Assembly: GCA_015063855.1 (NCBI GenBank)
Contig: SVTI01000003.1
Coordinates: forward strand, 1 to 50,793
Length of the DNA: 50,793 nucleotides
Source of the DNA: Oscillospiraceae bacterium
GTDB lineage: Bacteria > Bacillota > Clostridia > Oscillospirales > CAG-272
Direction: 5' to 3'
A program made the translations under genes and the position numbers. The notes beneath the pieces were generated by a model. The model had not been told where the DNA came from. It worked only from the letters and a program-made list of their open reading frames with translations, and did no database searches. Of the stretch, positions 7,060 through 42,200 are shown one piece after another (position 1 is the first letter of the stretch; the number at the start of each line of letters is the position of its first letter).

Positions 7060-7731
7060 TTATGATTGTGTTGTTCTCTTTTTACCGCATGCTGTAATAA
7101 CAACGGTAATAATTATCAACGCGCTTACAACAGCAAGACCAATATACAAAGTCAGATCAGTATTATCGTTTGTCTGAGGAGGCTTTGGGTCATCCTTTTC
7201 AACGGGAAGCTCATCTGCCTTGAATTCCCAATCTACATATCCGAGGGTATTCATATACTCGTTGTTAAGTTCCTCGGGAACATCAAGCGTAAGATCCAAA
7301 GTAATCTCACCGCCTGAATATATCGTTCCGAGATATACCCAATCTTTGAGTTGTGCTTCTTCATTCGCAGGAGCATCGAAGAGAACTGAGTCGCCGTTCT
7401 GCTTAACTGTAAGCTTCAGCTTTGAAAGAAATTCATCATCTGATTCTTCAGCCATACTTGTGTCGAGCGCTCTTACATAAAGCTTGATCTTAACATCTTT
7501 AACCTTTTCATTAACCACCTTGATACTGTCGGTAAGCTTATCACCGGGCATGACGTCCTTAAAGCTTGTAAAAAGGTCGGTGGGAGATTTATCGCTTCCC
7601 GGCTTAAAGATAAAATCCTTGGTATTAGCGTTAAACGTTACGTTACCTTGAGCAAATAAAGGAAGTGTCATGGAAACAATTATAACCGCAGTTATAAAGA
7701 GGAAGCTGAACTTTTTAATTATTATTTTCAT
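7060..7731 (-). CDS. TasA/camelysin-like domain protein with a C-terminal sortase-type sorting signal (PPQTND-TM-KKR)
   Basis: Sec signal peptide; FKDVMPGDKLTDSIKVVN resembles the camelysin/TasA 'PGD' motif; C-terminal PPQTND, hydrophobic helix and basic tail. Confidence 0.75.
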   Translation of the reverse strand: MKIIIKKFSFLFITAVIIVSMTLPLFAQGNVTFNANTKDFIFKPGSDKSPTDLFTSFKDVMPGDKLTDSIKVVNEKVKDVKIKLYVRALDTSMAEESDDEFLSKLKLTVKQNGDSVLFDAPANEEAQLKDWVYLGTIYSGGEITLDLTLDVPEELNNEYMNTLGYVDWEFKADELPVEKDDPKPPQTNDNTDLTLYIGLAVVSALIIITVVITACGKKRTTQS

Positions 7732-7743
7732 TTTTCCTCCTCC

Positions 7744-8304
7744 TTATTTGCTTATTCTACCTGTACTGCTTACTGTCACACCCCATGCTTCTTTAACAGC
7801 GCTTGTGGGGTTCGACTGTATAGCATCGGCGATGATTTCGACCTCAAGGTGATAGCCTGCAGGAGTTCTGCCACTTATGGGTTTAACTTCTCTGATGAAG
7901 TCCGGAGTAGATTTACCTGCAGCAACGGGTAAAGCGTAATAATAATATCCGTCAGAGGTAGTGAAATCCCAATTAGTGTTACTACCAAATCTAAAGGTAT
8001 AATCCTCATCCTTTACCGGCATTGAAGGATAAACATTACCGTTTGCATCCTTCCATGTTATAATATAATATGCTCTGATATAAGCAGAGGATCTTTCGGA
8101 TGTGTTCTTGATCTGAACATGCTCTTTTACTTCACCGTCAAAGGTTTCTGTAACCTCGGCTGATATATCACCCGGGAAGAAGGTGTTGACGATAGTATTG
8201 GTAAAATCAGTCTTATATGCAATGGTAACCCCGACAGACACTACAAAGAGGGCTACTATAGAAATTATAAAGAGTTTTTTATGAGCTTTAATATATTTCA
8301 TCAC
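7744..8304 (-). CDS. SipW-cognate secreted protein (TasA/CalY/BsaA-like subunit)
   Basis: GVTIA|YKTDFTNTIVNTFFPG signal/mature junction; AYIRA, DGYYYY and ADAIQS motifs shared with its paralogs. Confidence 0.8.
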   Translation of the reverse strand: MMKYIKAHKKLFIISIVALFVVSVGVTIAYKTDFTNTIVNTFFPGDISAEVTETFDGEVKEHVQIKNTSERSSAYIRAYYIITWKDANGNVYPSMPVKDEDYTFRFGSNTNWDFTTSDGYYYYALPVAAGKSTPDFIREVKPISGRTPAGYHLEVEIIADAIQSNPTSAVKEAWGVTVSSTGRISK

Positions 8305-8313
8305 AATACCTCC

Positions 8314-11139
8314 TTATACTTCCTTAAACTTATTAACAGCATAACATGTATCACTTAACCACTTTTTATTTGTAAGTGTATTTGTAAATGAGATATTAGC
8401 TGTTTCTTTAGCTTTTACAGTTACGGTTCTTGAGGTTGCGGTAACCGCAGAAGCACCGTTTACCGATACCTTGACTGAGGCTTTTGCATATCTCCAGCTC
8501 CAATCTGTACGCTCTGATACCTTATAATTACCTACAGGAAGATCATTTATAGTGACAGAGCCATTACCGTAAACAATAACGGTCATATTGATTGATTTGG
8601 TAGCAGTGCTTGTTCCGACTACATCAAAGATGAATGCTTGATCTTCATCGGGAATACCGCCATTCTTGATAACGGTTTTTTTAATTGTAAGGTTACCTAA
8701 CTGAATAGCCAAAATAATGTCAAGCTCAAGAACAGGCTTGCCTGTATTACCGGGAGTGAGATCACTTGCGGTATAAACGAATTTGAAGCTTTCAAAGAGC
8801 TCTGTGTTAAAGTTGGTAAGATTTGTTAATCTGAACTTTGAAAGATCAGTTGAAGTTACCGTACCTGAGCCGGAAATTACAACATTTCTTCCGTCATAAA
8901 GGTTCGAGTCGGTAAGACCAAGTGTAATTTTAATTCTTTGATTGCCAAAATTAAAATTGGAAGCCTTAGTTATCACCTTGGAACCTGATGCAGTATCCTT
9001 GGTAGTTGTGGAGGGCAAATAAAAATCATCATTAGGACCGCAATTGGTAAATCTGACTGTTCCGCCAAGATAGAAGACACCGTCCTGATATACTGCGCCT
9101 CCTATAGGTGCGTTGCAGTTAGAAATAATACCTCCGGACATATCAACGGTACCGCCTATATTATTATATATCGCACCGCCCTGATTCGCCGAACAGTTAT
9201 CGATGAGGCCGGAAACAAAGTAGAAAGCACCCTGTGTTACGGCAATGGCACCTCCGTTACCTTTAGCGCCTGCAGTACAGTTAACGATCTCAGCGCCGTT
9301 AAGGTAGGTAAATCCAACATTACATACAGAGCCGCCGTATTCAAGATTACCTCTGATAAGAGTAAAGTTTGAATTTAGATGTGCTGTACCATAATTTTCT
9401 ATATGTCTAAGCTTATTATTGGTATCAAAGATAAGCTCACCGTATTCTTTGGAGGTATCATTTGAGCCGAAATTAACAACCATAGCATTGGTTGGATTGG
9501 AATTCGAGCCTATGATTATACCATTTATGATCTTACGGTTCCATGTAGCGGTACAGCTTGAACCGGCTCTGGCGTCATTCTTTCCGCCGGGCTTTTCTCC
9601 CTTATAGGAAGAACGGATAGTTAGATTGTGAGGAATATTAACTGTGTATGCCTCGTTTGTGCTGTTATAAAATACCAGCTCATCATTATTTCTTGATGAA
9701 TTAACAGCATCATAAAGTGTAAAATACCATTTATTGAGCTGAATATTATATACAGATGCGATCTCAAAACGTATAACAGGATATGGGTCAGTGCTGTCTC
9801 CTGCATAATAGCTTACCGCCATTGAGTAAGAAAGATCCATTTCGTTCTGAATAATGATCTTATTTCTGTCGCTCTGAATAACAGGAGTTTTGATATCGGG
9901 CTGTCCGACTACAGGATTAGATTTATAACCTGAAGCGAGAATAATATCGCCGCTTCCCCACTTTTCAACGTCCTCAAGGAAAACAGACACGTTATTGATC
10001 TGATTGATGTTAGAACACCATTTACCGAGATAAGTACCGTATGCAAGATTTACTGAAAGCTTGTTATTATCAATATTCCATGTACCGAGTGCAGGGTTGG
10101 GCTCACGTAGACGAGTTACACCATAATCGGAGTCAACAGCCATTGCAAAATGGTGAATCTGTGTATTACCGACAAGCTCAAGAGCACCGCCATTAAGCTC
10201 AACCATGGGATAAACCTTATTCTCGGGATTCATAGTTGTAAGAAGTACACCTGTTCCCTTGTATCCTGCCTTATTAACGGGATCCGCAGCTATAGTGGTA
10301 TCCATTATGATGCAGCCGTCCGCGATCATAAGTCCGCCGTCTGCAACACGTATTGCAACAGGATTGGGATTTTCAGGACAATGAGCAGATGCATTATCTA
10401 TAAGAACATTGTTCTGCGCATAAAGATGTTTATCAAATCCGGTGTGGATATGAATCATTTCATCAGAATATCCGGGAGCACGCAATACCTGTACAGGTAC
10501 GAATGCAAAACCGGGCCAATGTGCAGAGAAATAATCCTGACCCCAGATCTCACCGTCAGTGGGGACATGATACATTTCGCAGATATAAATACGAATACCC
10601 TTTACATTATTGCCGAATACTCCAAGACCGATATTAAGAGTCGCCCATTCGAGAGCCTGCTCTATAGTGGTACAAATATAATCATGTGTCGCTTCGGGAG
10701 CACCCCAGTATGCAACGGGATTATAAACAGATGCTTCATTATCAAGCCAATATAGACCTGTTACATCATTACCTGAAGGATCCTTCTGTGTTGTATAGTA
10801 AAGAACACAGTAATCACCTGTAGCCTCAGAAATAATGGGTGAACCGAGACGGGTATCGTAAATATGATCCTCATCTACGCGTCCGCCTGCAAGATCTGTT
10901 ACAGAATCATCGGAAACGACCGAATCAATTTCGGCATCTTCATTATTCTTAGGTGTTACAGAGGACTCATTTGAAGTGTCATTTGAAGTATCATCTGTAG
11001 TGTCTGCTTCAGCAGGTAATGTTGTATCTGTAAGTAAAGCTTCTTCTTCGGTAACAAAAAGCTCCTCAGTAGCAAAAGACGGCATCAACATTACAAAGAG
11101 CATCAAGCAAACGAGGGAAAGTGCAAATAATCTTTTCAT
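8314..11139 (-). CDS. Large secreted adhesin-like protein (acidic stalk, GGA-repeat beta-helix, C-terminal pilin-like Ig domain)
   Basis: Signal peptide; D/T/S-rich N-terminus; repeated GGSV, GGAIAV, GGAIY and GGAVY motifs; C-terminal GNLTIKKTV...LPVGNYKVSE...ISFTN domain; no TM or LPXTG anchor. Confidence 0.75.
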   Translation of the reverse strand: MKRLFALSLVCLMLFVMLMPSFATEELFVTEEEALLTDTTLPAEADTTDDTSNDTSNESSVTPKNNEDAEIDSVVSDDSVTDLAGGRVDEDHIYDTRLGSPIISEATGDYCVLYYTTQKDPSGNDVTGLYWLDNEASVYNPVAYWGAPEATHDYICTTIEQALEWATLNIGLGVFGNNVKGIRIYICEMYHVPTDGEIWGQDYFSAHWPGFAFVPVQVLRAPGYSDEMIHIHTGFDKHLYAQNNVLIDNASAHCPENPNPVAIRVADGGLMIADGCIIMDTTIAADPVNKAGYKGTGVLLTTMNPENKVYPMVELNGGALELVGNTQIHHFAMAVDSDYGVTRLREPNPALGTWNIDNNKLSVNLAYGTYLGKWCSNINQINNVSVFLEDVEKWGSGDIILASGYKSNPVVGQPDIKTPVIQSDRNKIIIQNEMDLSYSMAVSYYAGDSTDPYPVIRFEIASVYNIQLNKWYFTLYDAVNSSRNNDELVFYNSTNEAYTVNIPHNLTIRSSYKGEKPGGKNDARAGSSCTATWNRKIINGIIIGSNSNPTNAMVVNFGSNDTSKEYGELIFDTNNKLRHIENYGTAHLNSNFTLIRGNLEYGGSVCNVGFTYLNGAEIVNCTAGAKGNGGAIAVTQGAFYFVSGLIDNCSANQGGAIYNNIGGTVDMSGGIISNCNAPIGGAVYQDGVFYLGGTVRFTNCGPNDDFYLPSTTTKDTASGSKVITKASNFNFGNQRIKITLGLTDSNLYDGRNVVISGSGTVTSTDLSKFRLTNLTNFNTELFESFKFVYTASDLTPGNTGKPVLELDIILAIQLGNLTIKKTVIKNGGIPDEDQAFIFDVVGTSTATKSINMTVIVYGNGSVTINDLPVGNYKVSERTDWSWRYAKASVKVSVNGASAVTATSRTVTVKAKETANISFTNTLTNKKWLSDTCYAVNKFKEV

Positions 11140-11153
11140 CTTCTCTTCCCTCC

Positions 11154-11735
11154 TTATTCAGCAGTAGGCCAGCCTTCGGCAGTCAATACGTCTTTTCCGT
11201 TATTGTCAGCCTGAACGCCTTCTGCGATAACGTCTATATCGATAGTACAATTCTTACAGGTAGTAAGCTCTTCTGAAATTATAACTTCGTCAATGATAGC
11301 ATCGGTAGAGTCACCTGTTTTTACAATATCCTTATAATAGAACCAACCGTCATCCTCTTCCTTGGTAAGCCAAGACGAAGAAGTTGCAGACTGTACGTAA
11401 ATATGCTCTTCGGGATAATCGACCTCATTACCCTCGCTATCCTTAACGGTTATAACATACTTACAGCGGATATAAGCATCAGCATCGTTATTCTGTACAG
11501 TTACAATTTTACTGATAGGGTCCTTTGAAGGTAATACCTTAATTTCATCCTCAGGATAATCAACAAGCTCTCCTTCGTCGTTAATCATTTTTTCAACGAT
11601 CTCGATATCGAAGCCGCCTGTTGTGATTACATTACGCGCAATTTTCTGTGCGGTAAAGTATGCGGCTGTACCTGTTGCGGCAATCGCAACAAGCAATACA
11701 GCCAATGCGAATACAAGGATCTTTCTTTTCCTCAC
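11154..11735 (-). CDS. SipW-cognate secreted protein (TasA/CalY-like subunit)
   Basis: GTG start; ATGTAA|YFTAQKIARNVITTG junction; AYIRC, DGWFYY and AEGVQA motifs. Confidence 0.85.
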   Translation of the reverse strand: MRKRKILVFALAVLLVAIAATGTAAYFTAQKIARNVITTGGFDIEIVEKMINDEGELVDYPEDEIKVLPSKDPISKIVTVQNNDADAYIRCKYVITVKDSEGNEVDYPEEHIYVQSATSSSWLTKEEDDGWFYYKDIVKTGDSTDAIIDEVIISEELTTCKNCTIDIDVIAEGVQADNNGKDVLTAEGWPTAE

Positions 11736-11968: not shown

Positions 11969-12487
11969 TTAAGCGAGTTCAACAAGCATTGCTTCCCAAG
12001 CTTCAGCTGCAGTGGTAGCTGCATCGTCCTGAATAGCATAAGCTGTGAAGGAAAGAGTAGCCTGAGCTGCTGCGGAAACGTCAGAAACGTCAGAGTCAAC
12101 AGTTACCTGATTGTCCTGAAGTACAGGGTAAGCGGTCTCAGCTGCGTTTTCAATGTAGTAAACGCCTTCGTAACCGGGAACTGCGGTCCAGGTCTTCTCA
12201 ATGCTGTACTTAACGAATTCGGGAAGAGTGCTCTCTACCTTAACGAATACCCAGCATCCGCCGCCGTTGGACTGAACGGTAACAACAGGATCCTTAGCGA
12301 TAGTAGCGCCGGGCTCTACTACGTACTTATCAGTGGTCTCTGTAAGAGTGATTGCGATGCCTTCGCCAACTACGAATACGTTGTCGATGGTCTGAGTCTT
12401 AGCGTTAAGCCAAGCATAGGTGCCGCCGATAGCAGCTCCGAAAAGTAATACAACTGCGAGTACAAGTACTAATGTTCTCTTTTTCAT
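11969..12487 (-). CDS. SipW-cognate secreted protein (probable major fibre subunit)
   Basis: IGGTYA|WLNAKTQTIDNVFVVG junction; PGATIAKDPVVTV and TAYAIQ...AEAW motifs. Confidence 0.88.
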   Translation of the reverse strand: MKKRTLVLVLAVVLLFGAAIGGTYAWLNAKTQTIDNVFVVGEGIAITLTETTDKYVVEPGATIAKDPVVTVQSNGGGCWVFVKVESTLPEFVKYSIEKTWTAVPGYEGVYYIENAAETAYPVLQDNQVTVDSDVSDVSAAAQATLSFTAYAIQDDAATTAAEAWEAMLVELA

Positions 12488-12569: not shown

Positions 12570-13193
12570 TTACTTAGTGAATGCTGCCCATGCAGCGTCT
12601 GCATCTGCAAAACCAAATGCCTGGATCGCGTGACCCTCAACGTTGATCTGCATGTTGTCGAGATTCTTGAGCTCATTGCCCCAGATTTCGCCATCGAACT
12701 GAACATCAGTAAAGATAGGCTCGAGAACTACTGCAGCGTCGGGAGCAGCAACTGTAGAAGCATAACGATATTCATATACAACAGAAGTCATATCGTCAGC
12801 AACAGTCTTTGCGTTGAGTATCCACTTTTCATTATCCACACCCTTGAAGATGCCATCGAGCTTGTCGCCGAGATAGGTATCGTCAAGTGCATTTTCGAAC
12901 TTTACGGTAACCATCATACGAACATAGGACTCAAGGCTTCCCTCTTCAACTGTAACGGTAGGAGCCTTAGGATAAACTTCACCGGGAACGATGTCCTCAT
13001 AGGTCTGTCCGTAGGAACCGTCATCGTTTTCTTCTGCGCCTTCTTCGTCGATGGAGATATCAACGTTACCTACTGTAAATACGTTCTTTACTTCATCGCT
13101 GTCTGTAAAGTATGCTACTGTAAGTCCTACGCTGAGAGAAACGAGTAAAAGTGCGGATGCAGCAAGTAATAATACTTTCTTTCCTTTCTTCAT
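12570..13193 (-). CDS. SipW-cognate TasA-family protein (probable major fibre subunit)
   Basis: VGLTVA|YFTDSDEVKNVFTVGNVDI is a canonical SipW-class signal; IVPGEVYPKAPTVTV and GHAIQA...AAWAAF motifs. Confidence 0.9.
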   Translation of the reverse strand: MKKGKKVLLLAASALLLVSLSVGLTVAYFTDSDEVKNVFTVGNVDISIDEEGAEENDDGSYGQTYEDIVPGEVYPKAPTVTVEEGSLESYVRMMVTVKFENALDDTYLGDKLDGIFKGVDNEKWILNAKTVADDMTSVVYEYRYASTVAAPDAAVVLEPIFTDVQFDGEIWGNELKNLDNMQINVEGHAIQAFGFADADAAWAAFTK

Positions 13194-13247: not shown

Positions 13248-13772
13248 TTACTTACTTTTTTTATTCTTTTTGTCATCGAATAATATATCGGGCAAAAAGA
13301 CTATAAACAGAACCACTGCACCGATGGCTATTGAAATATACAATCCGGGCGGATTCTGAATGAAATGAGACAAATAACCCAAAAGCGGAATTGAGAATAA
13401 GGGTTTTCCGATTATATTATTCTCATGAACCGGCTCACCGTCAGGTAATTTGTTTGCATCGCCCTGTGTTTCAAAGGCAAGCTTATCGGGGTCATTCTCA
13501 TCTGTTGTTATATTAATAATTCTGTGAGTTGCGACAGTTTCATCGGGAAGAACAAAGGTGATCGGATCTCCGACCTTAAGATCCTTTATGTCAGTTGATT
13601 TAACATATATAAGTGAACCGACATGGTATGTAGGCTCCATCGAGCCGGAAAGCACCGCGTATGGCTTGACACCGAACAGCCTAACTCCGGCTAATGCAAT
13701 CGCAAGCAACACTATTATAATTACTAAAATATTAGCGATAGTATTCCATATTTTCTTAATTTTGGTTGTCAT
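13248..13772 (-). CDS. sipW: Signal peptidase I, archaeal/ER-like SipW type
   Basis: VLSGSMEP catalytic Ser, ATHRI His, TQGDAN...D motif, N- and C-terminal TM helices, IPLLGY. Confidence 0.93.
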   Translation of the reverse strand: MTTKIKKIWNTIANILVIIIVLLAIALAGVRLFGVKPYAVLSGSMEPTYHVGSLIYVKSTDIKDLKVGDPITFVLPDETVATHRIINITTDENDPDKLAFETQGDANKLPDGEPVHENNIIGKPLFSIPLLGYLSHFIQNPPGLYISIAIGAVVLFIVFLPDILFDDKKNKKSK

Positions 13773-20583: not shown

Positions 20584-23500
20584 TTACTTATTAAACTTAA
20601 ACGAGTAAATGCTTGAATTTTTCAATTCAAATGTAAGTGTTACGGGAACTCCCTGGAAGTCCGCAACATTACCATCCTTAAAGATAACATTGTAATCGGC
20701 GCTGTCTGCTGCAAACCAATCGCTGGTTATAGCATTACCGCTGAAATCGGAAAGAGTTACTCTCATTGCATCTGCGGTAGCACAGTTTATAGCAAGAGAG
20801 TTGCCTTCAAAGGTGAAGGGCTTGGTAACCATTGTACTTCCTTGTGCGGTACCGAGAACTGCTCTGAAGCCGTCAAGACGCATTGTATAGCGGTAAAGAA
20901 CCGAGCAATCCTTGGAAGAGCTGTGTTCTGCCATATAGAGCGACAATTCATTCTCACCGGTCTGGATCATACCAACTGCAGGATAACAGTCACCGTGACC
21001 GTATACCTCGGGAAGATTGGGAGAAATAAATGCATTACCGTATCTCTTCCAGTTTACAAGATCTCGGCTGCACATAAGAAGTGCTTCTGTAGAAACAGGA
21101 TCAAGTGTAAACTTGGTAGGAAGACCTACATAGAGATCCTCAGAACGGAAGTAAGGAGTAATACAGTTGGTATACATCTGATAATCAATGTTGTCAGAAT
21201 AGCTGATCGGAACAGGAATGCTCCAATTGATGCAGTCATCACTCTCGGAATATCTGATATCACGAGAAATCTTAGTGGGGTTATTTGCAACATAATCCTT
21301 ATCGAGATTATAGTTACTTCCCTCATGGAAGCCACGAACAAAAGCAACATACTTGCCTCTGTTTTCATCCCAATACATGGTATTAAGTGTATCGAAATAA
21401 CAACCCTCGGTTTCGGTAGGAGTACTCATCATCTTTCTTTCGTAGCTACCGAAAGCAAAGTAGTTACCGTCACCTTCTCTTGAAAGCTCAAGGAAGAGAC
21501 CGTCGCCCCATTGACCGTAAACACCCTTCCAACGCTCGTTCTCGGGGCAGTCGGGATTGGTATCATAGAATACAAAGAGGTTATCGGGACGGCAAACCTC
21601 GTCTGTTACTATATTAGAAGCTCCACCCTGGGAGGTATTGGTATAAAGATTAGGACGAGACCAGTTGATACCGTCATCACTCTCGATATAGCAGATACGG
21701 CGTGTGTAGCCGCTATTGGAGGTTGCCTTGTAATACATTCTGTAGCTGCCGTCGGGAAGCTGAGAAATGTTGTGGTATACGGTATTGTAGGATTCATAAT
21801 CCTTATTGAAGGTAAACACTGCCTCCTTCTTTACAAGAGAGCCGAAGCCGTATACAGCATCGCTCGAGGAGGTATCGATCATATAGTTATCGATGAATAG
21901 CTGACGGCTGTCACCGATATCAATAGCATCAATATACTGCTCCTCTACCTTAACATTGTAATAATTGTAGCTTTCATCGGTATACTGAACTACAAAGGTA
22001 TATGTACCGGGAGCAAGAGTTACTCTTACGTATCCGTCAACAACTTCGGAGTTCTTAATGGTTACACAGTCGGCTGCGGCTTTGATCTCTGCGGAGGTTG
22101 AATAATTACCGCTTGCGTATCTGATAACCTGAAGATCGTTAAGATTACCGATTACAACAGTATTCTTGAGCTGCTGGAAGGAAGGTACCTTCTTTGCAAC
22201 GTCATACTTATACATTACAACATATCCGTTGTTATACTGAATACCGATTGTGACAGTACCGTTTTCACGGTACTGGATCATGTATTCGCTTTTACCCTTA
22301 AGATCTGCCTTGCCGGAGAAGGAACGCTGTCCTGCAGCTCTCTTGATCTCACCGGGGGTGGCAAATTCACCGTATGCGGTTCTGATAACCTTAACATCCT
22401 CAAGGTTAGAGAGATGTACCTGAAGGCCCTTGTTTTGGAATGCGGGCTCTACAACGGTTAAATCGATCTGAGTAATGATGTTTTCTCTGGTTGTATCGTT
22501 AAACCTGATACATACACTGTGTCTGCCGGGATTAGTTACGATATAGGAATAGTCATGTGCTCCTGCGATCTTGGTCTCGGTAACACGAACTATCTTGTTC
22601 TGATTGATCTCGGTGTAGGTATTATAGTCACCTTCAGCAATAAAGAAATCTCTGACACCGTAGAGGTTATGAACAGTTACCGTAACACCGTCGGAGGTAA
22701 TGTAAGGAATCATAACCGAAATATCTATAGTAGATATATATTCCTTACCATCCTTCGTTTTCATCCAGAAGGTATATACACCGCCATCGGTCATTTCTCT
22801 TGAGAAAATGCCGTTAACGGTACTGTTTGCTATTATCGAAGAATTAAGTGTTACACAACCGGGTGCGTTCTTTATATCGGATGAGGTTGTATAAACACCG
22901 TTAACGTATCTTATTGCAGAAATATTATCTGCTAAGGTTATAAATACGTCATAACCGCCTTCTGCATATACGTAAGGTACTGCAAGCGCAGGAATTATCT
23001 TTTCTTCATAGTAATCACAGAACCCACAGTCCTTTCTCATCAGACCGTTTTCAGTATCGGTAGCCTCTGTTACAGTATACCAGTCGCTCATTACATGACC
23101 ACCGGTTTCGTATATCTCCTGTGACAGAACTGTGTTACATCTTGTACAGTAGGTTGTAAGAGAACCGTTTGATACACATGTTGCCTCTACCAATACAGGC
23201 TCGCCTGCGTTATGTCCGAGGGCAGGAATTGACTTTGTTTCTGTAGCTATACAATCCTGACATTTTCTCTTTGCTACGCCTTCGGTGGTACAAGTAGGCT
23301 CGGTTACTGTATACCACTCACCATAAATATGGGGCACACCGGAGTGGTTGAGAACGATACCGTAGGAATTGGAATATATGCCGGGTGTGCTGGTTCCTGA
23401 AACGCCGTCAGAAGTTTTTTCACATACAGTGATAAATCTGCCCCATGTATTGGGCTGACCGTTAGCCATTTCGTATCTGTCCATATACATTATAGAAGCA

Positions 23501-24165
23501 CGGGAAACGGTACCCTGAGTTGCAAGAGTAGTCGCAGAAACATTTTTTGCACCTGCGGCGCTGAGATCGGCAACAATTATATTCCAAGGAATCTTAACTT
23601 CAAAACGCCAGCCTTTTTCGGTGATTGCACCTGCAGTAGTGCAGCTTGTAGTGATATCACCCTCGTTTGCTCTTGAACGATATACGTGCACAGAACCATC
23701 AGCATATATTCCGATATTATACCAAGGTGTGTATTTAGCTGAATTGCCGAAAGCACTCTGTGCATCAAGCATAAGATTCATTACGTCTCCGTTAAAGCCG
23801 TAATTTCTTGTATTACCATCATTGTCGATATTATCGTAACCTGTAGATGCTACAAAGCTGTTCTTTTCGTTACAATCGGTAATATCAGCTGCAAAGTATA
23901 ATCCGTTTGTATCATATGCAAAAAATACTTCAGCTGAAGACGTGCATGGATTTGTTGCCCAAAAATGACCTACAGTTGCATCATTAACGTATGCAGGCTG
24001 AGACCATTTACCGCTTGTTTCGATTGATCCGTCGATTACGGGACTGCTTTTAGGCATAGTAACCGCAGGATTTTGAACAGTACCGTCAGCATAACCGAAC
24101 ACGTTAAACGGTACTATCATAAGTATACACAAAAGAAATGCGATAATTCGTGTGATCCTTTTCAT
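20584..24165 (-). CDS. Large secreted multidomain protein: CBM9/DOMON-like domain, Cys/His repeats, ~80-aa repeats and a five-bladed beta-propeller glycosidase-like domain (paralog 1)
   Basis: Signal peptide; PVIDG...AYDTNGLYFAADITD...GWRFEVKIPW; PTCTTEG..C..C repeats; IRY..G.Y.TS.(D/E)IK.A repeats; Asp-box-like ESDDGINWS, ESDDCINWS and SRDLVNW motifs. Confidence 0.75.
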   Translation of the reverse strand: MKRITRIIAFLLCILMIVPFNVFGYADGTVQNPAVTMPKSSPVIDGSIETSGKWSQPAYVNDATVGHFWATNPCTSSAEVFFAYDTNGLYFAADITDCNEKNSFVASTGYDNIDNDGNTRNYGFNGDVMNLMLDAQSAFGNSAKYTPWYNIGIYADGSVHVYRSRANEGDITTSCTTAGAITEKGWRFEVKIPWNIIVADLSAAGAKNVSATTLATQGTVSRASIMYMDRYEMANGQPNTWGRFITVCEKTSDGVSGTSTPGIYSNSYGIVLNHSGVPHIYGEWYTVTEPTCTTEGVAKRKCQDCIATETKSIPALGHNAGEPVLVEATCVSNGSLTTYCTRCNTVLSQEIYETGGHVMSDWYTVTEATDTENGLMRKDCGFCDYYEEKIIPALAVPYVYAEGGYDVFITLADNISAIRYVNGVYTTSSDIKNAPGCVTLNSSIIANSTVNGIFSREMTDGGVYTFWMKTKDGKEYISTIDISVMIPYITSDGVTVTVHNLYGVRDFFIAEGDYNTYTEINQNKIVRVTETKIAGAHDYSYIVTNPGRHSVCIRFNDTTRENIITQIDLTVVEPAFQNKGLQVHLSNLEDVKVIRTAYGEFATPGEIKRAAGQRSFSGKADLKGKSEYMIQYRENGTVTIGIQYNNGYVVMYKYDVAKKVPSFQQLKNTVVIGNLNDLQVIRYASGNYSTSAEIKAAADCVTIKNSEVVDGYVRVTLAPGTYTFVVQYTDESYNYYNVKVEEQYIDAIDIGDSRQLFIDNYMIDTSSSDAVYGFGSLVKKEAVFTFNKDYESYNTVYHNISQLPDGSYRMYYKATSNSGYTRRICYIESDDGINWSRPNLYTNTSQGGASNIVTDEVCRPDNLFVFYDTNPDCPENERWKGVYGQWGDGLFLELSREGDGNYFAFGSYERKMMSTPTETEGCYFDTLNTMYWDENRGKYVAFVRGFHEGSNYNLDKDYVANNPTKISRDIRYSESDDCINWSIPVPISYSDNIDYQMYTNCITPYFRSEDLYVGLPTKFTLDPVSTEALLMCSRDLVNWKRYGNAFISPNLPEVYGHGDCYPAVGMIQTGENELSLYMAEHSSSKDCSVLYRYTMRLDGFRAVLGTAQGSTMVTKPFTFEGNSLAINCATADAMRVTLSDFSGNAITSDWFAADSADYNVIFKDGNVADFQGVPVTLTFELKNSSIYSFKFNK

Positions 24166-24296: not shown

Positions 24297-26369
24297 TTAT
24301 ATAAAATATGTAGGTAATTCATCCTCAACAGCTCTTCTTGTGAGGTTGATTTTCCATTTAAGATGTTCGGGATCGCACATATATTCCATACTGGGCTCAT
24401 AACCGAGACGTGAATCAAATTCAGTTAAAGCTATGGTTTCCTCGGCATTTGCTATATCACGCTTGCCGATTTCTATCATTTCGGCAACTATCTTATTTCT
24501 TTCTTCACCCTTGGAATCAAGTAATACTTCCTTGCGTTTTTTCCATTCCTTAACGTTAACGGTAGTCTTAGCCGCATTACTGATAAAACGGCACATATTA
24601 AGGAGAAGCTGAGCCTCGTGTCTCTTTCTTTCGGGGATCATGGGAATTATCTTTTCAAGGATATCTCCGCCTTCATCGTAAAGCTCTGCGGTTTTTGTAT
24701 GACATTTGATCTCATAATTGATCTTATCCCAGAGATAAGGTTCAGAAAGATCGTATTTGTATACGGGATTGCAGATCTCGTTGCCGCCGTGAGGAGCATA
24801 AGGTACTGAGGGGAATACCGCATCAACATCCTTATAAAGTATCAAGGGATAAGAAGGCCCGATACGGAAGGGTCCGTACTGGTCTTCGTTGGTAGAAATA
24901 AGATATCTTATACCCTCACTAAAGCATTCGTAAGCTTTAAGCACATCATCGGCAGTTTCCTCGCTGAAGTCACGAACGGCAAGACGACGAAGCATTACGT
25001 TAAGATCGGGAGTAGGTTTATAGAACGCCCATTTCGCGAGATCGGAAATAAACGAAGGATAGAAGCCGTAATGGTGGCTGTCCATTGTACCGCAAAGACC
25101 GTAGTTCTCATGCATTTCACGCATGTTTTCATATCTTCTCATCCACTGATAGGGCGCAGGCTCGTAAGGAATGGTACCAACATCCCAGGTAAGACCGCCG
25201 GTATTGGTCATAGCGTAAAGGCGGATACCTCTTTCCTTTGCAAGCTTTGCTTCGCTCGTAAAGTACTTACCGGGACCTTCAAAGAAGAGAGTATAGTCAA
25301 CGGTACGGTTGGCTATTCCGTCTCGTACAACGTCTTCAAACATCTCAAACGTAACGAGAAGCGAAATGTCGGTAGGTATATTACGAAGAAGCTCAAGTCT
25401 GTATTTCTCTTCAACGTATCCCCAGTTATAAGTCCAGAATACAATATCTGCATCCGGCTTTTTATTGCGGATGATTCGCTTGATCATATTGATCCACAAG
25501 GGGAAATCATAGCAGGGCCACCAACCGGGGCTGGGCTTACCCTTGACGATCGGCTCACCGTTTCCGTCAAGATTATCAAGTCTTAGAATACCTGTAGTAT
25601 GAGGGTCTTTACTGGGGAATTCGCAGGATTCACCTACAAAGATTATACCCTTGAAATAGGGGCATCTTTCAAAAAGTCTGCCATAGAGATTTTCATAAAA
25701 TTCCTCTGCTTCAGGACCTTCGGGGTAAACACGGCTCTTCATATAACTGTATGCATATACATCAACTCCCCACTGCGCCGCACGGTAACAAAGATCGTTG
25801 AAGTCGAGATAACCGTGAGGAGTTACGTCAATATCCTCAACAAATATAAGTAAAGCGTTGATACCTGCATGGGCAATAGATCTGATATGTTCCTCGGGAA
25901 ATTTATCAAGTCCGTAGCCGGAATGGATCATTCTCGGACTGTAAAGAGGAGTACGTATCTCGTCTGCTATATCAAGATAGGGAGCCTCGTTGAGATTCAT
26001 CAGATCCTCGAGATAATAACCTGCCTGTGCAGCTGCTCTGGTATCATGACCGCAAAGAGTTACACGATTTTCGGTTACGGTAAACTTATAAGAATTTTCA
26101 GGAAGTGTTTTGTCAACTTTGTAAGCAATGGTCTTTCCTATAACCTCATCCTCATAAGCAACATGGAGGGATACGTCCATGGAAACAAAGAAATAATCCT
26201 CAAGGTCACGGCATGCCTTCATAAGAACGTCATCATACTCACGGGGTATGGTGATGATCCATTCGAGGTCGATCTCAACCTGATTTTCTTTCTTTAAAAT
26301 GTTTTTGTCGCGACGGTGAGGACGGTGTACCTCCATCATACGCTCTCTGAATTGATAATTTCTTTCCAT
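24297..26369 (-). CDS. Hypothetical cytoplasmic glycoside-hydrolase-like protein (GH20/GH67-like N-terminal domain plus probable TIM barrel)
   Basis: 690 aa, no signal peptide. ENSYKFTVTENRVTLCGHDTRAAAQAGYYLED resembles the hexosaminidase-type N-terminal domain; GIIFVGES strand. Confidence 0.55.
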   Translation of the reverse strand: MERNYQFRERMMEVHRPHRRDKNILKKENQVEIDLEWIITIPREYDDVLMKACRDLEDYFFVSMDVSLHVAYEDEVIGKTIAYKVDKTLPENSYKFTVTENRVTLCGHDTRAAAQAGYYLEDLMNLNEAPYLDIADEIRTPLYSPRMIHSGYGLDKFPEEHIRSIAHAGINALLIFVEDIDVTPHGYLDFNDLCYRAAQWGVDVYAYSYMKSRVYPEGPEAEEFYENLYGRLFERCPYFKGIIFVGESCEFPSKDPHTTGILRLDNLDGNGEPIVKGKPSPGWWPCYDFPLWINMIKRIIRNKKPDADIVFWTYNWGYVEEKYRLELLRNIPTDISLLVTFEMFEDVVRDGIANRTVDYTLFFEGPGKYFTSEAKLAKERGIRLYAMTNTGGLTWDVGTIPYEPAPYQWMRRYENMREMHENYGLCGTMDSHHYGFYPSFISDLAKWAFYKPTPDLNVMLRRLAVRDFSEETADDVLKAYECFSEGIRYLISTNEDQYGPFRIGPSYPLILYKDVDAVFPSVPYAPHGGNEICNPVYKYDLSEPYLWDKINYEIKCHTKTAELYDEGGDILEKIIPMIPERKRHEAQLLLNMCRFISNAAKTTVNVKEWKKRKEVLLDSKGEERNKIVAEMIEIGKRDIANAEETIALTEFDSRLGYEPSMEYMCDPEHLKWKINLTRRAVEDELPTYFI

Positions 26370-31501: not shown

Positions 31502-33088
31502 TTAAGAGTAAAGCTCGAATCCAAAGGCGTGAAGGCCGCTGGAATGGAAGTTGTTAAGCATCTCTTCCGCGGTAAATACAGTATTTGAAACAAGCGTAAA
31601 GATTGTATCCTTAACAAAAGCATCACTTGATGATGAATAATTATAGAAATCAAGATCGTAAACAGTTGTTACGGGATTAATAGTACCGCTTGCAGGAACA
31701 ACATTCTTACCTGAAAGATAAATATCAACGGTCATATTGTATAAATTCGCTTTTTTGGGAATATCAATGGTTACGTAGCTTTCCTGAGTTCCCTTTTTGA
31801 TATAATATTTAATTGTAAATGCAGTCTTGTTAATATCATAGAGTATCTTTGTTTCACCGTATGAACCGTCACTAAGAGTTTCAGTGGACTTGAGATAATA
31901 AATACCGTTACCTGACTTTAAGCCTTCTGTGTAAAAATAATAGCAAAGTCTGCTGTATTCCGATCCGAAAATCTCTGAATTACAACGTGTACATATTCCG
32001 TAATTAGTTGTGTGTCCCAAAGCGGGTGCAGCCTGGTATCCGCAACGCTTACACTTTTTAGCTGATGTGCAGGTATGAGCGGTGTAATCATGACCGAGAG
32101 CATTCTGCTTTATGTCACCGCATCTTGAACACTTAGCGGGCGCTGTGCAGGTAGCGACGGAATAATTGTGTCCGGGGGCTTCCTTTCTTATATCGCCGCA
32201 TATGGTACATTTTTCCGCTTGAGTACAGCTTCCCTTAGTATAATTATGAAGTCCCTTATCGGCTGCAACGTATTCGCCGCATACCGTACAGGTATCACCG
32301 TTTACACAGGAGAGAGAATTACACTTGTGACCGAGAGGAAGTGTAAATTTGATGCCACAGCTTCTGCACCAATCGCCTTTAACGCAGGAGGGCTCTGTAC
32401 GGGTTCTGTGCACACACCAGGAATTGAGATAATCGACCATAAATACGTTGATCATCTTAGCAATCTGTGCCCTTGTCATTATTGTCTTAGGTGAAAATAC
32501 AAGCTTGTTTGTGCTTGTGCTTCCCATAATACCCGAATCGATAATATATTTAACACCGTCGAGTGCCCAATTTGATACCTTGTTAAGATCTGTGTAAGAA
32601 GATGCTGTATTGGTAAGTGCAGGCTGCTTTTCGGATTCTTTAAGCACTCTTGTAAACATTACTGCCGCTTCTTCACGGGTCATAGATTTATTGGGCGAGA
32701 AATTACCGTTACCGGTACCGTTTGCATATCCTGCATTGAATGCCCACATAACACTGGGAGTATACCATGAGCCGGCAGGACAATCGTTAAATACAGTGTT
32801 GTTATAGGATGAAAGGTCAGCCTTCATTACACGGGCAAGCATTACTACAAAGGTAGCACGTGTAAGGTTGGCATTGGGGGCAAAGGTATAAGTATTTCCC
32901 TGTCCGTTTATAACTTCATTTGCATAACAAAATTCAGCATGGGGTGCAAACCACTGACCGGCAGGAACATCTTCAAAGGGTAATAAAGCATTACTTGAGG
33001 TTACGGCCGCATTTACGGGAGTAGCCATTGCACCAATACATGGGATAAGTGTTGCTATGACTAACATTAGCGATAATAATTTTTTCAT
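31502..33088 (-). CDS. S-layer homology (3x SLH) surface protein with Cys/His-rich repeats
   Basis: Signal peptide; FEDVPAGQWF, FAPNANLTRA, FSPNKSMTRE and FSPKTIMTRA motifs; several H.Y...(S/T)C....C..CG repeats. Confidence 0.88.
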   Translation of the reverse strand: MKKLLSLMLVIATLIPCIGAMATPVNAAVTSSNALLPFEDVPAGQWFAPHAEFCYANEVINGQGNTYTFAPNANLTRATFVVMLARVMKADLSSYNNTVFNDCPAGSWYTPSVMWAFNAGYANGTGNGNFSPNKSMTREEAAVMFTRVLKESEKQPALTNTASSYTDLNKVSNWALDGVKYIIDSGIMGSTSTNKLVFSPKTIMTRAQIAKMINVFMVDYLNSWCVHRTRTEPSCVKGDWCRSCGIKFTLPLGHKCNSLSCVNGDTCTVCGEYVAADKGLHNYTKGSCTQAEKCTICGDIRKEAPGHNYSVATCTAPAKCSRCGDIKQNALGHDYTAHTCTSAKKCKRCGYQAAPALGHTTNYGICTRCNSEIFGSEYSRLCYYFYTEGLKSGNGIYYLKSTETLSDGSYGETKILYDINKTAFTIKYYIKKGTQESYVTIDIPKKANLYNMTVDIYLSGKNVVPASGTINPVTTVYDLDFYNYSSSSDAFVKDTIFTLVSNTVFTAEEMLNNFHSSGLHAFGFELYS

Positions 33089-39284: not shown

Positions 39285-42200
39285 ATGAAGAAGTTTATTA
39301 GTATCATTTTAATTATTCTCTGTGTGGCTTCCCTGCTTTCTGTCAATGTGTTCGGTTATGCCGCTTCCGTTGATGAAAATCCACCCGTTACTATGCCGAA
39401 AAGTACACCCGTTATTGATGGAGTTATTGAGAACAGCGGTGAATGGTCAGAGCATGCTGACTTTAACGATGCGACCTTTGGTCGTTTCTGGAGCTGGAAT
39501 GCGCCTACATCTGAAGCGAAGCTGTATTTCGCCTATAATACCAACGGTCTTTTCTTTGCCGCTGATATTACCGATAACCATCCCGAAAACGGCTTTGTAC
39601 CCTCCACAGGTTATGACAACGTAAATCCCAGCGGTTCAACCAAGCCTTATGGATTTAACGGTGATGTTATGACCCTTATGCTTGATGCTTTAGGTGTGTT
39701 TGAGAGAACAAGTACACAAACAACTCCCTGGTATAACGTCGGTATTTACGCTGACGGAAGTGTCAGAGTTTACCGTTCTCAGGTCAATGAGGGTGATATT
39801 ACAGCAAGCTGCTCCACAGCAGGCACCATAACCGAAAGCGGCTGGAGTTTTGAGGTCATGATTCCTTGGAGTACCATTTCTGCTGACGTTACCAAAGCCG
39901 GTAAGAGTGCTTCTGTTTCCAAGCTTTCTGCGATCGGATCTGTTTCCCTAGCATCTGTTATGTATATGGACAGATATAAGACAGGCACAGGAGCTACCGA
40001 CACTTGGGGTAGATTTATTACCGTATGCGAAAGCACCTATGACGGTACAAACGGTTGCTATACAAACGGTGTTGTTGCCAAATCCTACGGTCTTGTACTT
40101 AATCATAGCGATGTAGCGCATAAATGGGGAGATTGGGAGATATCCGAGTCGCCGACCTGTAATTCTGACGGCTTTGAGATCAGATATTGTTCTCATTGTA
40201 CAGCTACTAAGATCAAAGCTATCCCCGCTCTCGGTCATATCGAAGGTGAAACAGTTACCGTTGACTCTACTTGTATCTCCAACGGCTCTGTAACTCAGTA
40301 TTGCGGCAGATGTAATGCTGTGCTTTCTCAGGAGATAACACAAGCCTCGGGTCACTCTATGAGTGATTGGTATACTTATATTGAGCCAACCGACTCCGAA
40401 AACGGTGTTGAGAGAAACAGTTGCGAGTATTGCGATTACTATGAGGAAAGAGTGATTCCCGCACTTGCTGTTCCCTATCTTTATTTTGAGGGCGGCTATG
40501 ATGTAATGATCACATTAGCAGACAATATAACAGCAATCAGATATGCAAGCGGTGTATATACCACATCCACCGAAATTAAAAACGCTCCCGACTGTGTGAA
40601 CTTAAGCGCAGCTGTTATTAAGAATAATACTGCCGGCGGTATCTTTACCCGTACCATGCCCGACGGAGGTGTATATACCTTCTGGATGAAGATGGCTGAC
40701 GGCAAGGAGTATATCCGCAGTATCGATATATCGAAGATGACTCCTAAGGTAAGTGCCGACGGTGTTACTGTCGCCGTGAGTAATCTCTACGGAGTCAAGG
40801 ATGTATTTATTGCCGAGGGTGATTATTCCACATATACAGAAATCAATGCAAATAAAATAGTTCGTCTTACCGAAACAAAATTGAGCGGTAAGCACAGCTA
40901 TTCCTATGTTGTTTCCAATCCCGGTACACATTCGATCTGTATCCGATTTAATGATACCACAAGGGCTAATATAATCACAAAGATCGATTTAACCGTAGTT
41001 GAGCCTGTTTTCACCAATAACGGCTTACAAGTCAAGCTCTCTAATCTTGAAGGTGTTAAGGTTGTCCGTACAGCATACGGTGAGTACAATACCCCCGGTG
41101 AGATAAAGAGAGCTGAAGGTCAGCGCTCCTTCTCAGGTAAAAACGATCTTAAGGATAAAAGCGAATATACCATTCAGTATCGTGAAAATGGAATTGTTAC
41201 TGTGGGTATTCAGTACAATAATGGCTATGTTGTAATGTACAGATATGACGTAGCTAAGAAGTCTCCTACCTTCACACAGTTAAAAAATACTGTTAAGATA
41301 GGTAATCTTGACGGACTTCAGGTTGTTAGATATGCAAGCGGTGTATATTCCACCTCCTCTGAGATCAAGAACGCTCCCGATTGCGTAACTATAAAGAATA
41401 ATCAGGTAGTAAACGGCTACATCAATGTTACACTTCCCGCAGGTACATATACCTTCGTGGTTCAGTATACAGATGAAAGCTATAACTATTATACCGTAAC
41501 AGTTGAAGACCAGTATATTGATGCTATCAATATTGCTGATACCCGTCAGCTTATGATGGATGATCTTCTCATAGATACCGACTATAGTGATACTTCTCTT
41601 CTTCTTGAGAATGCTGTTAAGAAAGAAGTAGTATTTACATTCAATAAGTCATATGAAACAGGCGGTATCGTATTCCCCAATATTGTAGAAATGCCTGAAG
41701 GCGGATACAGAATGTACTATACTGCTTTCTCAGGCAGACGTCGTGTTTGCTATATTGAGAGTAATGACGGCATCAAGTGGACACGTCCCAACCTCAGATC
41801 AAATACCTTCAACGGTGACAGCTATACCAATATTGTTACAAGTGAGGTTGTCAGCCCCTCCGCACTTTATGTTTTCTATGATGAAAACGCAGGTGCGCTT
41901 CGAGGTGTATACGGTCAGTGGGCGGACGGAATGTTCCTTGAATACACCAATAATAACGGTGATTACTTTGAATTCTGGCCTAATGAAGCTAAGATGATGG
42001 GTAAGCCCGAGGAAACAGGCGGATGTTATTTTGATACTCTCAATACTGTATATTATGATGAAGTTAAGGGTAAATATATTTCCTATGTAAGAGGCTTCCA
42101 TGTAGGCGATAATTATAACCTCACCCGTGAATATGTTGAGGCTAATCCCGATAAGATCATCCGTGATATAAGATACTCGGAAAGTGATGACTGTATTAAC

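Follow-up and report, generated by a model that had tools for sequence, protein, structure and literature searches.

The stretch of DNA considered here, called the window below, comprises 50,793 nucleotides of contig SVTI01000003.1 from an Oscillospiraceae bacterium and carries on its minus strand an operon with the order sipW, pilA, pilB, pilC, the gene of a 941-residue putative adhesin, pilD, and anchE. The 941-residue protein is probably the cargo-bearing tip subunit of a SipW-dependent pilus of the TasA/BsaA donor-strand-exchange type, and its C-terminal tail would be donated in trans to the minor pilin PilD. The evidence is in silico throughout: the conservation of the tail, its exclusive position at C-termini, its linkage to pilD, its unfolded state in the modeled C-terminal module, and its predicted insertion into PilD. 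An initial annotation of the window had proposed that the end of this protein imitates the N-terminal donor strands of the neighboring pilins and plugs an otherwise anchorless adhesin into the first shaft subunit.

The features on which this reading turns are the following:

8314..11139, minus strand: 941-residue secreted protein, putative tip adhesin, with a Sec-type signal peptide, a cargo region with GGAI-type repeats, a DUF5979 domain, and the tail.
8371..8691, minus strand: DUF5979 (PF19407)/CnaB-like Ig domain, residues 817-923 (Pfam, 30.8 bits against a cut-off of 25).
8317..8370, minus strand: C-terminal tail, residues 924-941, TNKKWLSDTCYAVNKFKEV, with the proposed donor strand W927-F938 at 8326-8361.
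8332..8334, minus strand: codon of N936, the Asn of N-x-F and candidate isopeptide donor, by positional match to the N-x-F Asn of the pilins and to N35 of BsaA.
8309..8313, minus strand: GGAGG ribosome-binding site of pilD, immediately past the adhesin stop, read from the sequence as TAA GGAGG TATT GTG ATG.
7744..8304, minus strand: pilD, the dedicated minor pilin that is predicted to accept the tail, from its ortholog downstream of the tail gene in 35/35 loci and from complex prediction.

The adhesin has an ordinary Sec-type signal peptide and ends ...KWLSDTCYAVNKFKEV (...FTNTLTNKKWLSDTCYAVNKFKEV) past its DUF5979/CnaB-like domain. This is the C-terminus quoted in the initial annotation, and it was recovered in the minus-strand open reading frame (ORF) 8314-11139, with the stop codon at 8314-8316 and the last 16 codons at 8317-8364. 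The DUF5979 domain scores above the gathering threshold of its family and has a CnaB/pilin-like fold; in a Foldseek search, its model matched domains of the Streptococcus pyogenes pilins Spy0125 and Spy0128 (E 3.6e-6, TMq 0.54-0.59). Because the Pfam domain ends at residue 923, no domain model covers the final 18 residues. The last ~125 residues of the protein are proposed to be a portable docking module, made of the DUF5979 domain and a free tail of ~15 residues (W927-V941). No LPXTG motif, membrane segment, or basic sorting tail was found at the C-terminus of the adhesin sequence, which places it outside the sortase-anchored LPXTG adhesins; in this operon, the sorting signal is on AnchE instead. 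In addition, Pfam and NCBIfam scans of the protein detected no TapA-related family, and the Pfam scan detected no WxL family, the tail being a stretch of ~15 residues and not a domain. For the cargo, the Atlas gave leads only (scores 0.90-0.93), among them Chlam_PMP, Beta_helix, and a pectate-lyase-like adhesive domain (0.90-0.91).

The tail is conserved well beyond the window. A pattern scan of species-representative genomes identified 35 loci in Oscillospiraceae, Lachnospiraceae, Erysipelotrichaceae, and other Clostridia, several of the genomes apparently coming from gut or rectal samples, and the last 142 residues of the proteins were aligned. The tail's W and L do not vary among the 35 loci. 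At position 4, 31 loci have G and the remaining four D; at position 10, 28 have N, and five more have N at position 11; at position 12, 28 have a hydrophobic residue. The linker that precedes the tail is variable, and the stop codon falls 12-28 residues past the tail W. Position 4 was also compared with a Cys in strand 2 of PilD, which accompanies 23/31 G-tails and 1/4 D-tails; this covariation was set aside, as it comprises at most three independent changes.

Database searches gave a similar picture. A word-based search with residues 790-941 retrieved 32 proteins of 569-1,591 amino acids; [WL]Lx[GD] stands a few residues before the stop in 31 of them, and they differ in their precomputed Pfam domains (VWA, Listeria-Bacteroides repeat, PA14, MucBP). 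A profile search against 1.84 billion cluster representatives returned 4,300 at E ≤ 1e-3, 2,829 at E ≤ 1e-10 (a count that takes in tail-less DUF5979 arrays), and 363 at E ≤ 1e-30. Among the best 150 of these 4,300 representatives, WLx[GD] was present in the last 45 residues of 117, together with N-x-hydrophobic in 110 of the 117; sortase-type endings accounted for 12, and the other 21 comprised some near-variant tails, two tails lying further inward, and otherwise a membrane segment or other sequence. The same best 150, which amount to 189,094 residues, contained no internal copy of WLxGx5NxF. Likewise, the relatives of a VWA-bearing member (L028) have the tail motif in 86 of the 120 matches listed, and 12 inspected relatives outside those 86 mostly end in near-variant tails such as WINGFSTVVQNIF or WLSFTDSVKNIF.

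The cargo, on the other hand, differs from protein to protein. In 30 full-length adhesins from the loci, Flg_new was detected in 21 and VWA in seven, BNR in one that also contains VWA, and MucBP/Muc_B2 in one that also contains Flg_new; no cargo family was recognized in two, one with DUF5979 only (L005) and one with nothing (L015). Taken with the 117 of the best 150 representatives, these 30 adhesins answer the check proposed in the initial annotation, whether the motif stands at C-termini whatever the cargo, and they support, at the level of sequence, a tail that is confined to extreme C-termini independently of the cargo.

The second line of evidence is genetic linkage. An ortholog of pilD lies directly downstream of the tail-bearing gene in 35/35 loci, with a gap of -61 to +25 nt; the pairing was automatic in 34 loci and read by eye in one (L027), owing to an over-long ORF call. 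In the window, pilD begins 9-12 nt downstream of the adhesin gene, its start being the GTG at 8304 or, more likely, the ATG at 8301. A sipW gene was found in 25/35 loci; in nine of the ten others the fetched DNA stops within the adhesin gene or less than 3.7 kb upstream of it, and in L017 no sipW match was found in the 4.7 kb upstream of its first pilin gene. A match to anchE was present downstream of pilD in 26/35 loci.

The converse was examined from the side of the domain, by searching Pfam DUF5979 over 151 genomes of the same order, including that of the window; 25 genomes had a match, and one locus was examined in each. Five of the 25 loci (the window's own included) have a tail, located 18-26 residues past the domain, and all five have pilD within a 1.5-kb flank. 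In the other 20 proteins, which lack the tail, either further sequence follows or the end is a sortase-type signal, a membrane segment, or both; pilD is absent from 19 of these 20 loci, and the exception (L056) is an AnchE-like protein itself. The tail is therefore associated with pilD, and tail and sortase signal appear as alternative endings of one domain family. An equal frequency of the motif outside sipW loci, which would have spoken against the initial annotation, was thus not observed.

The third line of evidence comes from structure prediction. In an AlphaFold2 (AF2) model of the last 142 residues, based on 35 aligned sequences, mean pLDDT was 88.6 and the DUF5979 domain exceeded 90; the tail was a coil with a pLDDT of ~58 that did not pack against its own domain as a strand. 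The folding back of the strand onto the adhesin's own Ig domain, against which the initial annotation had advised a check, was accordingly not seen. The tail might still belong to the fold of the adhesin, as a cis strand or lid of DUF5979 or of an upstream partner domain that is kept for stability. A final strand that closes the sheet is indeed common in CnaB-type domains, and the full-length AF2 model, built with eight close homologs, had a mean pLDDT of 45 with the tail again at low confidence, too poor a model to argue against an upstream partner. However, the module model is confident and its domain is complete without the tail, Pfam DUF5979 stops at 923, DUF5979 elsewhere has no tail, and the tail occurs only where pilD is adjacent, all of which makes a role in cis very improbable.

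The complex of the two proteins was predicted with ESMFold2 from mature PilD (residues 30-186, which contain the N-terminal strand of PilD itself) and residues 809-941 of the adhesin, using custom alignments. The ipSAE was 0.91, 0.91, and 0.90 in three runs, whereas in the controls it was 0.45 and 0.00 when the partner was exchanged for another protein and 0.00 when PilD was; the mark of the tool was reached by 58/80 solved complexes and by 2/110 mismatched pairs, a calibration that is only rough here since our own alignments were used. At least 97% of contacts agreed between runs, and partner pLDDT was at least 91. All adhesin residues from 926 to 941 are in the predicted interface, with the tail antiparallel to PilD 156-163 (lowest-error pairs 933/158, 932/159, and 928/162-163). 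On PilD, the predicted interface covers residues 45-51, 53, 55, 57-58, 60, and 152-163, and the body of DUF5979 packs on residues 79-95. The N-terminal strand of PilD itself (30-44), although present in the prediction, did not occupy the site of the tail. The model supports binding of the tail to PilD by strand insertion, and the acceptor is probably this dedicated minor pilin, not the shaft. Of the docking proposed in the initial annotation, the free C-terminal strand that inserts into a pilin in trans is thus favored by conservation, linkage, the AF2 model, and the predicted complex (0.90-0.91 against 0.45 for the best control), while the first shaft subunit as its receiver is less supported than PilD.

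The same strand could be donated in trans to another pilin in vivo, namely PilC or the shaft pilin PilA, with PilD acting elsewhere, for example as an adaptor to the anchor. The spacing of the tail is indeed 12 residues, as in the strands of PilA and PilC and not 13 as in those of PilB and PilD, in the main subfamily most loci have pilC directly upstream of the adhesin gene, and prediction tools tend to dock donor strands in non-cognate grooves as well (PMC11821415). We consider this alternative unlikely, as pilD is the sole pilin gene that is adjacent in 35/35 loci, including five divergent loci without a pilC match, the complex with PilD reached 0.91 against 0.45 for the best control, and the sole PilD without E53 and K60 stands beside a tail without N-x-F.

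A different kind of explanation supposes that an enzyme or secretion factor, for instance a peptidase, an export helper, or a transpeptidase of the sortase kind, reads the tail as a signal for recognition or sorting. Such a role would agree with a tail that is strictly C-terminal and alternates with sortase signals on the same domain family, and the release of BsaC in Clostridium perfringens depends on type IV pilus proteins (PMC11580942). It is nevertheless improbable: the hydrophobic segment and charged stop-transfer tail of known C-terminal sorting signals are absent, no conserved enzyme gene other than sipW was found in the loci, the window has no sortase, and the complex model sets the tail within the sheet of PilD.

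The likeness between the tail and the pilins themselves has to be judged against the other subunits of the operon:

13248..13772, minus strand: sipW, archaeal-type signal peptidase I (TIGR02228, E 3.1e-34, 118 bits against a cut-off of 51.85; also a Peptidase_S26 match).
12570..13193, minus strand: pilA, TasA/BsaA-like pilin and probable shaft subunit (TIGR04088, 31 bits against a cut-off of 19, and a Camelysin N-terminal region).
11969..12487, minus strand: pilB, minor pilin (TIGR04088, 18.8 bits, 0.2 below the cut-off of 19).
11154..11735, minus strand: pilC, minor pilin, directly upstream of the adhesin gene (TIGR04088, 21 bits; TIGR04090, the BsaA family, E 8e-12, below cut-off).
7060..7731, minus strand: anchE, base or anchor subunit, whose pilin-related core lies between a Sec signal peptide and a C-terminal end made of PPQTN, a membrane segment, and KKR.

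The signal peptidase is thus encoded together with its subunits, as a fibre of the TasA/BsaA donor-strand-exchange type requires, and the signal and N-terminal motif of SipW-dependent subunits are present: PilA and PilC pass TIGR04088, the SipW-cognate signal model, PilB is just under it, and PilD has no match, yet the motif A|Y..(x)N-x-F is visible in it. The TIGR04090 (BsaA family) matches of PilC and PilD are both below cut-off. The donor strand of PilA is YFTDSDEVKNVF (Y28-F39, with N37, and E50 and K76 further on in the pilin), that of PilC is YFTAQKIARNVI, that of PilB is WLNAKTQTIDNVF with 13-residue spacing, and the N-terminal strand of PilD is YKTDFTNTIVNTF, with the spacing of PilB. 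All four N-termini quoted in the initial annotation were found with their spacing, those of PilA and PilC aligning with the tail without gaps and those of PilB and PilD being one residue longer. Position 10 is N and position 12 hydrophobic in the tail, PilA, and PilC, and the features common to the tail and the pilin strands amount to aromatic-L...N-x-F only.

This resemblance was quantified with a position-specific scoring matrix (PSSM), for which other loci supplied 53 unique donor strands of the 12-residue spacing. The tail of the window, as the 12-mer WLSDTCYAVNKF, scored 4.4 bits. For the family, 177 unique tails were gathered from all retrieved proteins and chosen by W[LIV], which brings a slight bias toward position 2; 142 of them exceeded the 90% quantile of the background, 65 the 99% quantile, and 15 the 99.9% quantile, where ~18, 1.8, and 0.2 are expected by chance. 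The positive score stems from positions 2, 10, and 12, and some tails, for instance WLSFTDSVKNIF, come near canonical pilin strands. The donor-strand signal of the tail family is clear by this measure. The mimicry claimed in the initial annotation consequently stands for the shared aromatic-L...N-x-F and for the enrichment of the family, and is weak for the single tail with its 4.4 bits. As for the strict motif WLx[GD]x5Nx[FWYL], its single occurrence in the genome is in the 941-residue protein. Among 10,859 six-frame reading frames, 49 have the looser pattern aromatic-[LF]-x7-N-x-hydrophobic within their last 22 residues, a frequency that would suit a coincidental likeness, with a module that binds a wall polymer, a host ligand, or the like, and an unrelated adjacency of pilD. 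The enrichment across the family, the perfect synteny with pilD, and a complex prediction above its controls leave little probability to such a coincidence.

The N-x-F of the tail may also have a chemical meaning, which the initial annotation did not consider: it likely corresponds to the isopeptide Asn of BsaA. In BsaA of C. perfringens, residues 28-38 form the donor strand, and the receiving subunit contributes K74, to which N35 (of N-x-F37) is crosslinked under catalysis by E56; the substitutions N35A, K74A, and E56A each abolished heat-stable oligomers (PMC11580942). By alignment position, these N, E, and K residues have counterparts in all four pilins of the operon. Their conservation in the loci is high, both in PilA (N37 37/39, E50 38/39, K76 39/39) and in PilB (N36 22/23, E50 23/23, K65 23/23), PilC (N35, E48, and K76, each 24/25), and PilD (N40, E53, and K60, each 35/36). 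The distance between the aromatic-L pair and the Asn of N-x-F is equal in the tail, PilA, and PilC, and both E53 (codon at 8146-8148) and K60 (codon at 8125-8127) of PilD are inside its predicted interface. As E53 and K60 match the Glu and Lys of the BsaA lock, N936 may be locked covalently, and by this analogy an N936-K60 isopeptide bond is probable. In one locus (L015, 2520-3806), the sole PilD that has neither E53 nor K60 accompanies a tail without N-x-F, which is a single event. The "adhesin" beside this altered pilD is a short, cargo-less protein of 251 residues; the locus could be degenerate or could represent a correlated loss of the lock.

The following sequence of events would account for these data. 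After Sec export, the tail would enter the open sheet of PilD as a beta-strand and fill the place that is held in other subunits by the N-terminal strand of a neighboring pilin. The inserted tail would lie beside E53 and K60 of PilD, and N936 would probably become locked to K60 by self-catalysis, by analogy with N35, E56, and K74 of BsaA. The N-terminal strand of PilD would stay free for the next pilin, PilC, whose strand resembles that of PilA, and then PilA, and the fibre would therefore grow from its tip. In the case of TasA, it has been argued that the groove of a subunit must be filled before the subunit can extend its strand (PMC9674648), and on this argument insertion of the tail would be the nucleating step, the TapA-like role that the initial annotation had suggested. 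The fibre would end at AnchE, which would take the last free N-terminal strand, has no donor strand of its own, and would be anchored to the wall by its sortase-type signal.

A bolder version of this scheme takes the tail for a natural peptide tag and PilD for its catcher. A self-catalyzed, E53-aided N936-K60 bond would then weld any cargo that carries DUF5979 and WLxG...N-x-F to the tip of the pilus without a sortase, insertion would start polymerization, and the whole would be a plug-in system widespread in gut Clostridia, which swaps VWA, Listeria-Bacteroides repeat, MucBP, and sialidase-like cargo. We put this version forward as a tentative and rather doubtful proposal.

Several observations weigh against the proposed donation of the tail to PilD, or against its lock. 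By itself, the tail of the window is only marginally donor-strand-like: 158 of 768,129 12-mers of the genome match or beat its PSSM score, an equally good window is found in the last 25 residues of 9/2,691 ORFs, and most tails of the other loci have negative scores. Because the PSSM and pattern tests are marginal, the case for a donor strand does not rest on the alignment of a single tail. Position 10 is other than N in 7/35 tails, and one tail (L027) has no N at all beside a PilD that keeps its E and K. The complex prediction covers PilD alone as acceptor, and close cousins of a true partner can pass as well. As solved structures include donor-strand complexes, the fold class itself may account for part of the score. 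To these may be added the full-length model of the adhesin, too poor to exclude a cis partner upstream. Finally, BsaC, the VWA protein of the C. perfringens sipW operon, is described as a free band of 70 kDa in the secretome (PMC11580942), which would weigh against obligatory covalent capture if BsaC has such a tail. When the BsaC antibody peptide (PMC11580942) was back-translated into a degenerate DNA pattern, the genome contigs searched gave no match, and no protein named as C. perfringens was among the 120 matches listed for the L028 query.

The proposed base of the fibre, AnchE, combines a pilin-related core that lacks the donor-strand motif with a sortase-type signal at the C-terminus. 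By hhalign, the profile of AnchE matches that of PilD with a probability of 77% across 28 columns, which suffices to regard AnchE as pilin-related but does not define its groove; K60 of PilD stands opposite a Thr in this alignment, so the joint on the AnchE side may be locked differently. In the window, AnchE reads PPQTN, where most orthologs have P-x-T-G (PPQTGD, SPKTGD, LIQTGQ), and PPQTN may be a variant motif or a degraded signal. Six sortase genes are present in the genome, all on other contigs and none in the window. Among the 26 AnchE matches, 23 end in x-P/I/L-x-T-G and a membrane segment; the other three (L007, L020, and L027, 415-506 residues) have a C-terminal region of W-Y-Y-x-A-V...-type and no membrane segment, which may be another wall-binding domain.

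The composition of the shaft also varies among loci. Genes whose best match is pilA number from none to five in the other loci, which fits PilA as a variable shaft subunit; two to five tandem pilA paralogs occur in L010, L013, L014, L022, L023, and L025, and they suggest variation of the exposed fibre surface. Most loci have one gene of the pilB class, and some have none or two. In most loci of the main subfamily pilC is directly upstream of the adhesin gene. A divergent subfamily (L031, L033, L036, L038, and L039) has two sipW genes and no pilC match, with pilD still directly downstream of the adhesin gene; its tails, which read WLNGNS...N-x-K/R, lack the Phe and have their Asn at position 11. 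The pilin encoded after the second sipW has a different N-terminal motif in L033 and L039, A-R-Y-T/V-T...D-x-A-R-V.

Elsewhere in the window, an SLH-domain protein is encoded at 31502-33088 (PF00395, E 2.2e-26), which suggests that the organism has a wall attachment system of the S-layer type as well. Three large ORFs at 20584-24165, 24297-26369, and 39285-42830 (1,193, 690, and 1,181 residues) match no Pfam family at E ≤ 1e-5. On another contig, a frame of 206 residues (L004, G000:C98:10069-10146) has a weak, sub-threshold TIGR04088 match of 16.4 bits and could be a further SipW-type substrate outside the operon.

Several known systems are related to the one proposed here. One is the TapA-TasA pair of Bacillus subtilis, in which TapA was proposed as the nucleator of TasA from sequence likeness and an AlphaFold-Multimer model, the same two kinds of evidence as here; in both cases an accessory protein of a sipW operon would offer a pilin-like strand to the groove of the first subunit (PMC9674648). 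However, the strand of TapA is N-terminal and released by SipW, whereas that of the adhesin is at the extreme C-terminus of a Sec-exported protein, past a CnaB-like domain, and TasA is described without the N-E-K triad that the pilins of the window have (PMC11580942). The adhesin may be TapA-like in its working without being a member of the TapA family.

The BsaA "exchange and lock" fibres of C. perfringens, encoded by sipW-bsaA-bsaB-bsaC, are built from SipW-dependent pilins, and the N, E, and K positions of BsaA are common to the four pilin classes of the window; the bsa operon also codes for the VWA protein BsaC, and most strains have a BsaB-like protein that bears LPXTG (PMC11580942). Unlike the adhesin studied here, BsaC is given no fibre role and no C-terminal strand in the available text (PMC11580942). 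In the Tat-fimbriae (tafi) of the archaeon Haloarcula hispanica, an AlphaFold-based order was proposed with TafC as the tip protein that gives the first donor strand, TafE as adaptor, TafA as shaft, and TafF as an acceptor with a C-terminal membrane span (PMC11821415). This logic parallels that of adhesin, PilD, shaft, and AnchE, but TafC has a pilin-like N-terminal domain with an N-terminal donor strand and a C-terminal lectin cargo, whereas the adhesin has its cargo at the N-terminus, its strand at the C-terminus, and no pilin domain.

The WxL (Elr) pilus of Enterococcus faecalis is similarly a case of donor-strand exchange in a Gram-positive bacterium with a sortase-anchored end, and its tip adhesins combine an invariant C-terminal attachment module with a variable cargo, as here (bioRxiv 10.64898/2026.10.17.759780). 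There, however, a membrane chaperone is needed, and the WxL domain, which belongs to an unrelated family, accepts a strand in its groove, whereas the adhesin of the window would donate one. In sortase-assembled pili, tip adhesins such as Spy0125/Cpa have C-terminal CnaB domains of the same fold class as the docking domain described here, and the end result, a covalent Lys-linked joint between adhesin and pilin, would be comparable; their joint is made at LPXTG by a pilin sortase, whereas here it would come from strand insertion and self-catalysis.

In the literature searched, supplementary figures aside, no natural C-terminal donor strand was found described on a TasA-like tip protein. The only "C-terminal donor strand" encountered was that of an engineered, self-complemented AbpX, in a source that also notes predicted tip proteins and anchors of the LPXTG or SLH kind in the AbpX-like loci of bacteria (bioRxiv 10.64898/2026.01.04.697558). 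A C-terminal tail on a cargo protein would thus be a new and previously undescribed variant of donor-strand exchange, recognized in silico, in which the initiating strand is carried by a protein that is not a pilin.

Adhesins of Gram-positive bacteria are known to be fixed to pili by sortases. If the proposal is correct, donation of a C-terminal strand to a pilin of the TasA/BsaA type would be a third way of fixing an adhesin, beside the sortase and the acceptance of a strand by WxL domains. It would also explain the purpose of the large anchorless proteins encoded in sipW operons, perhaps including the VWA protein of the C. perfringens bsa operon. Should the Asn-Lys lock be real, the tail of 15 residues and PilD would form a natural tag and catcher pair of practical use. 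More generally, the module is common, occurs in Oscillospiraceae, Lachnospiraceae, and Erysipelotrichaceae, and carries cargo types tied to host and mucus binding; it therefore bears on the attachment of gut Clostridia.

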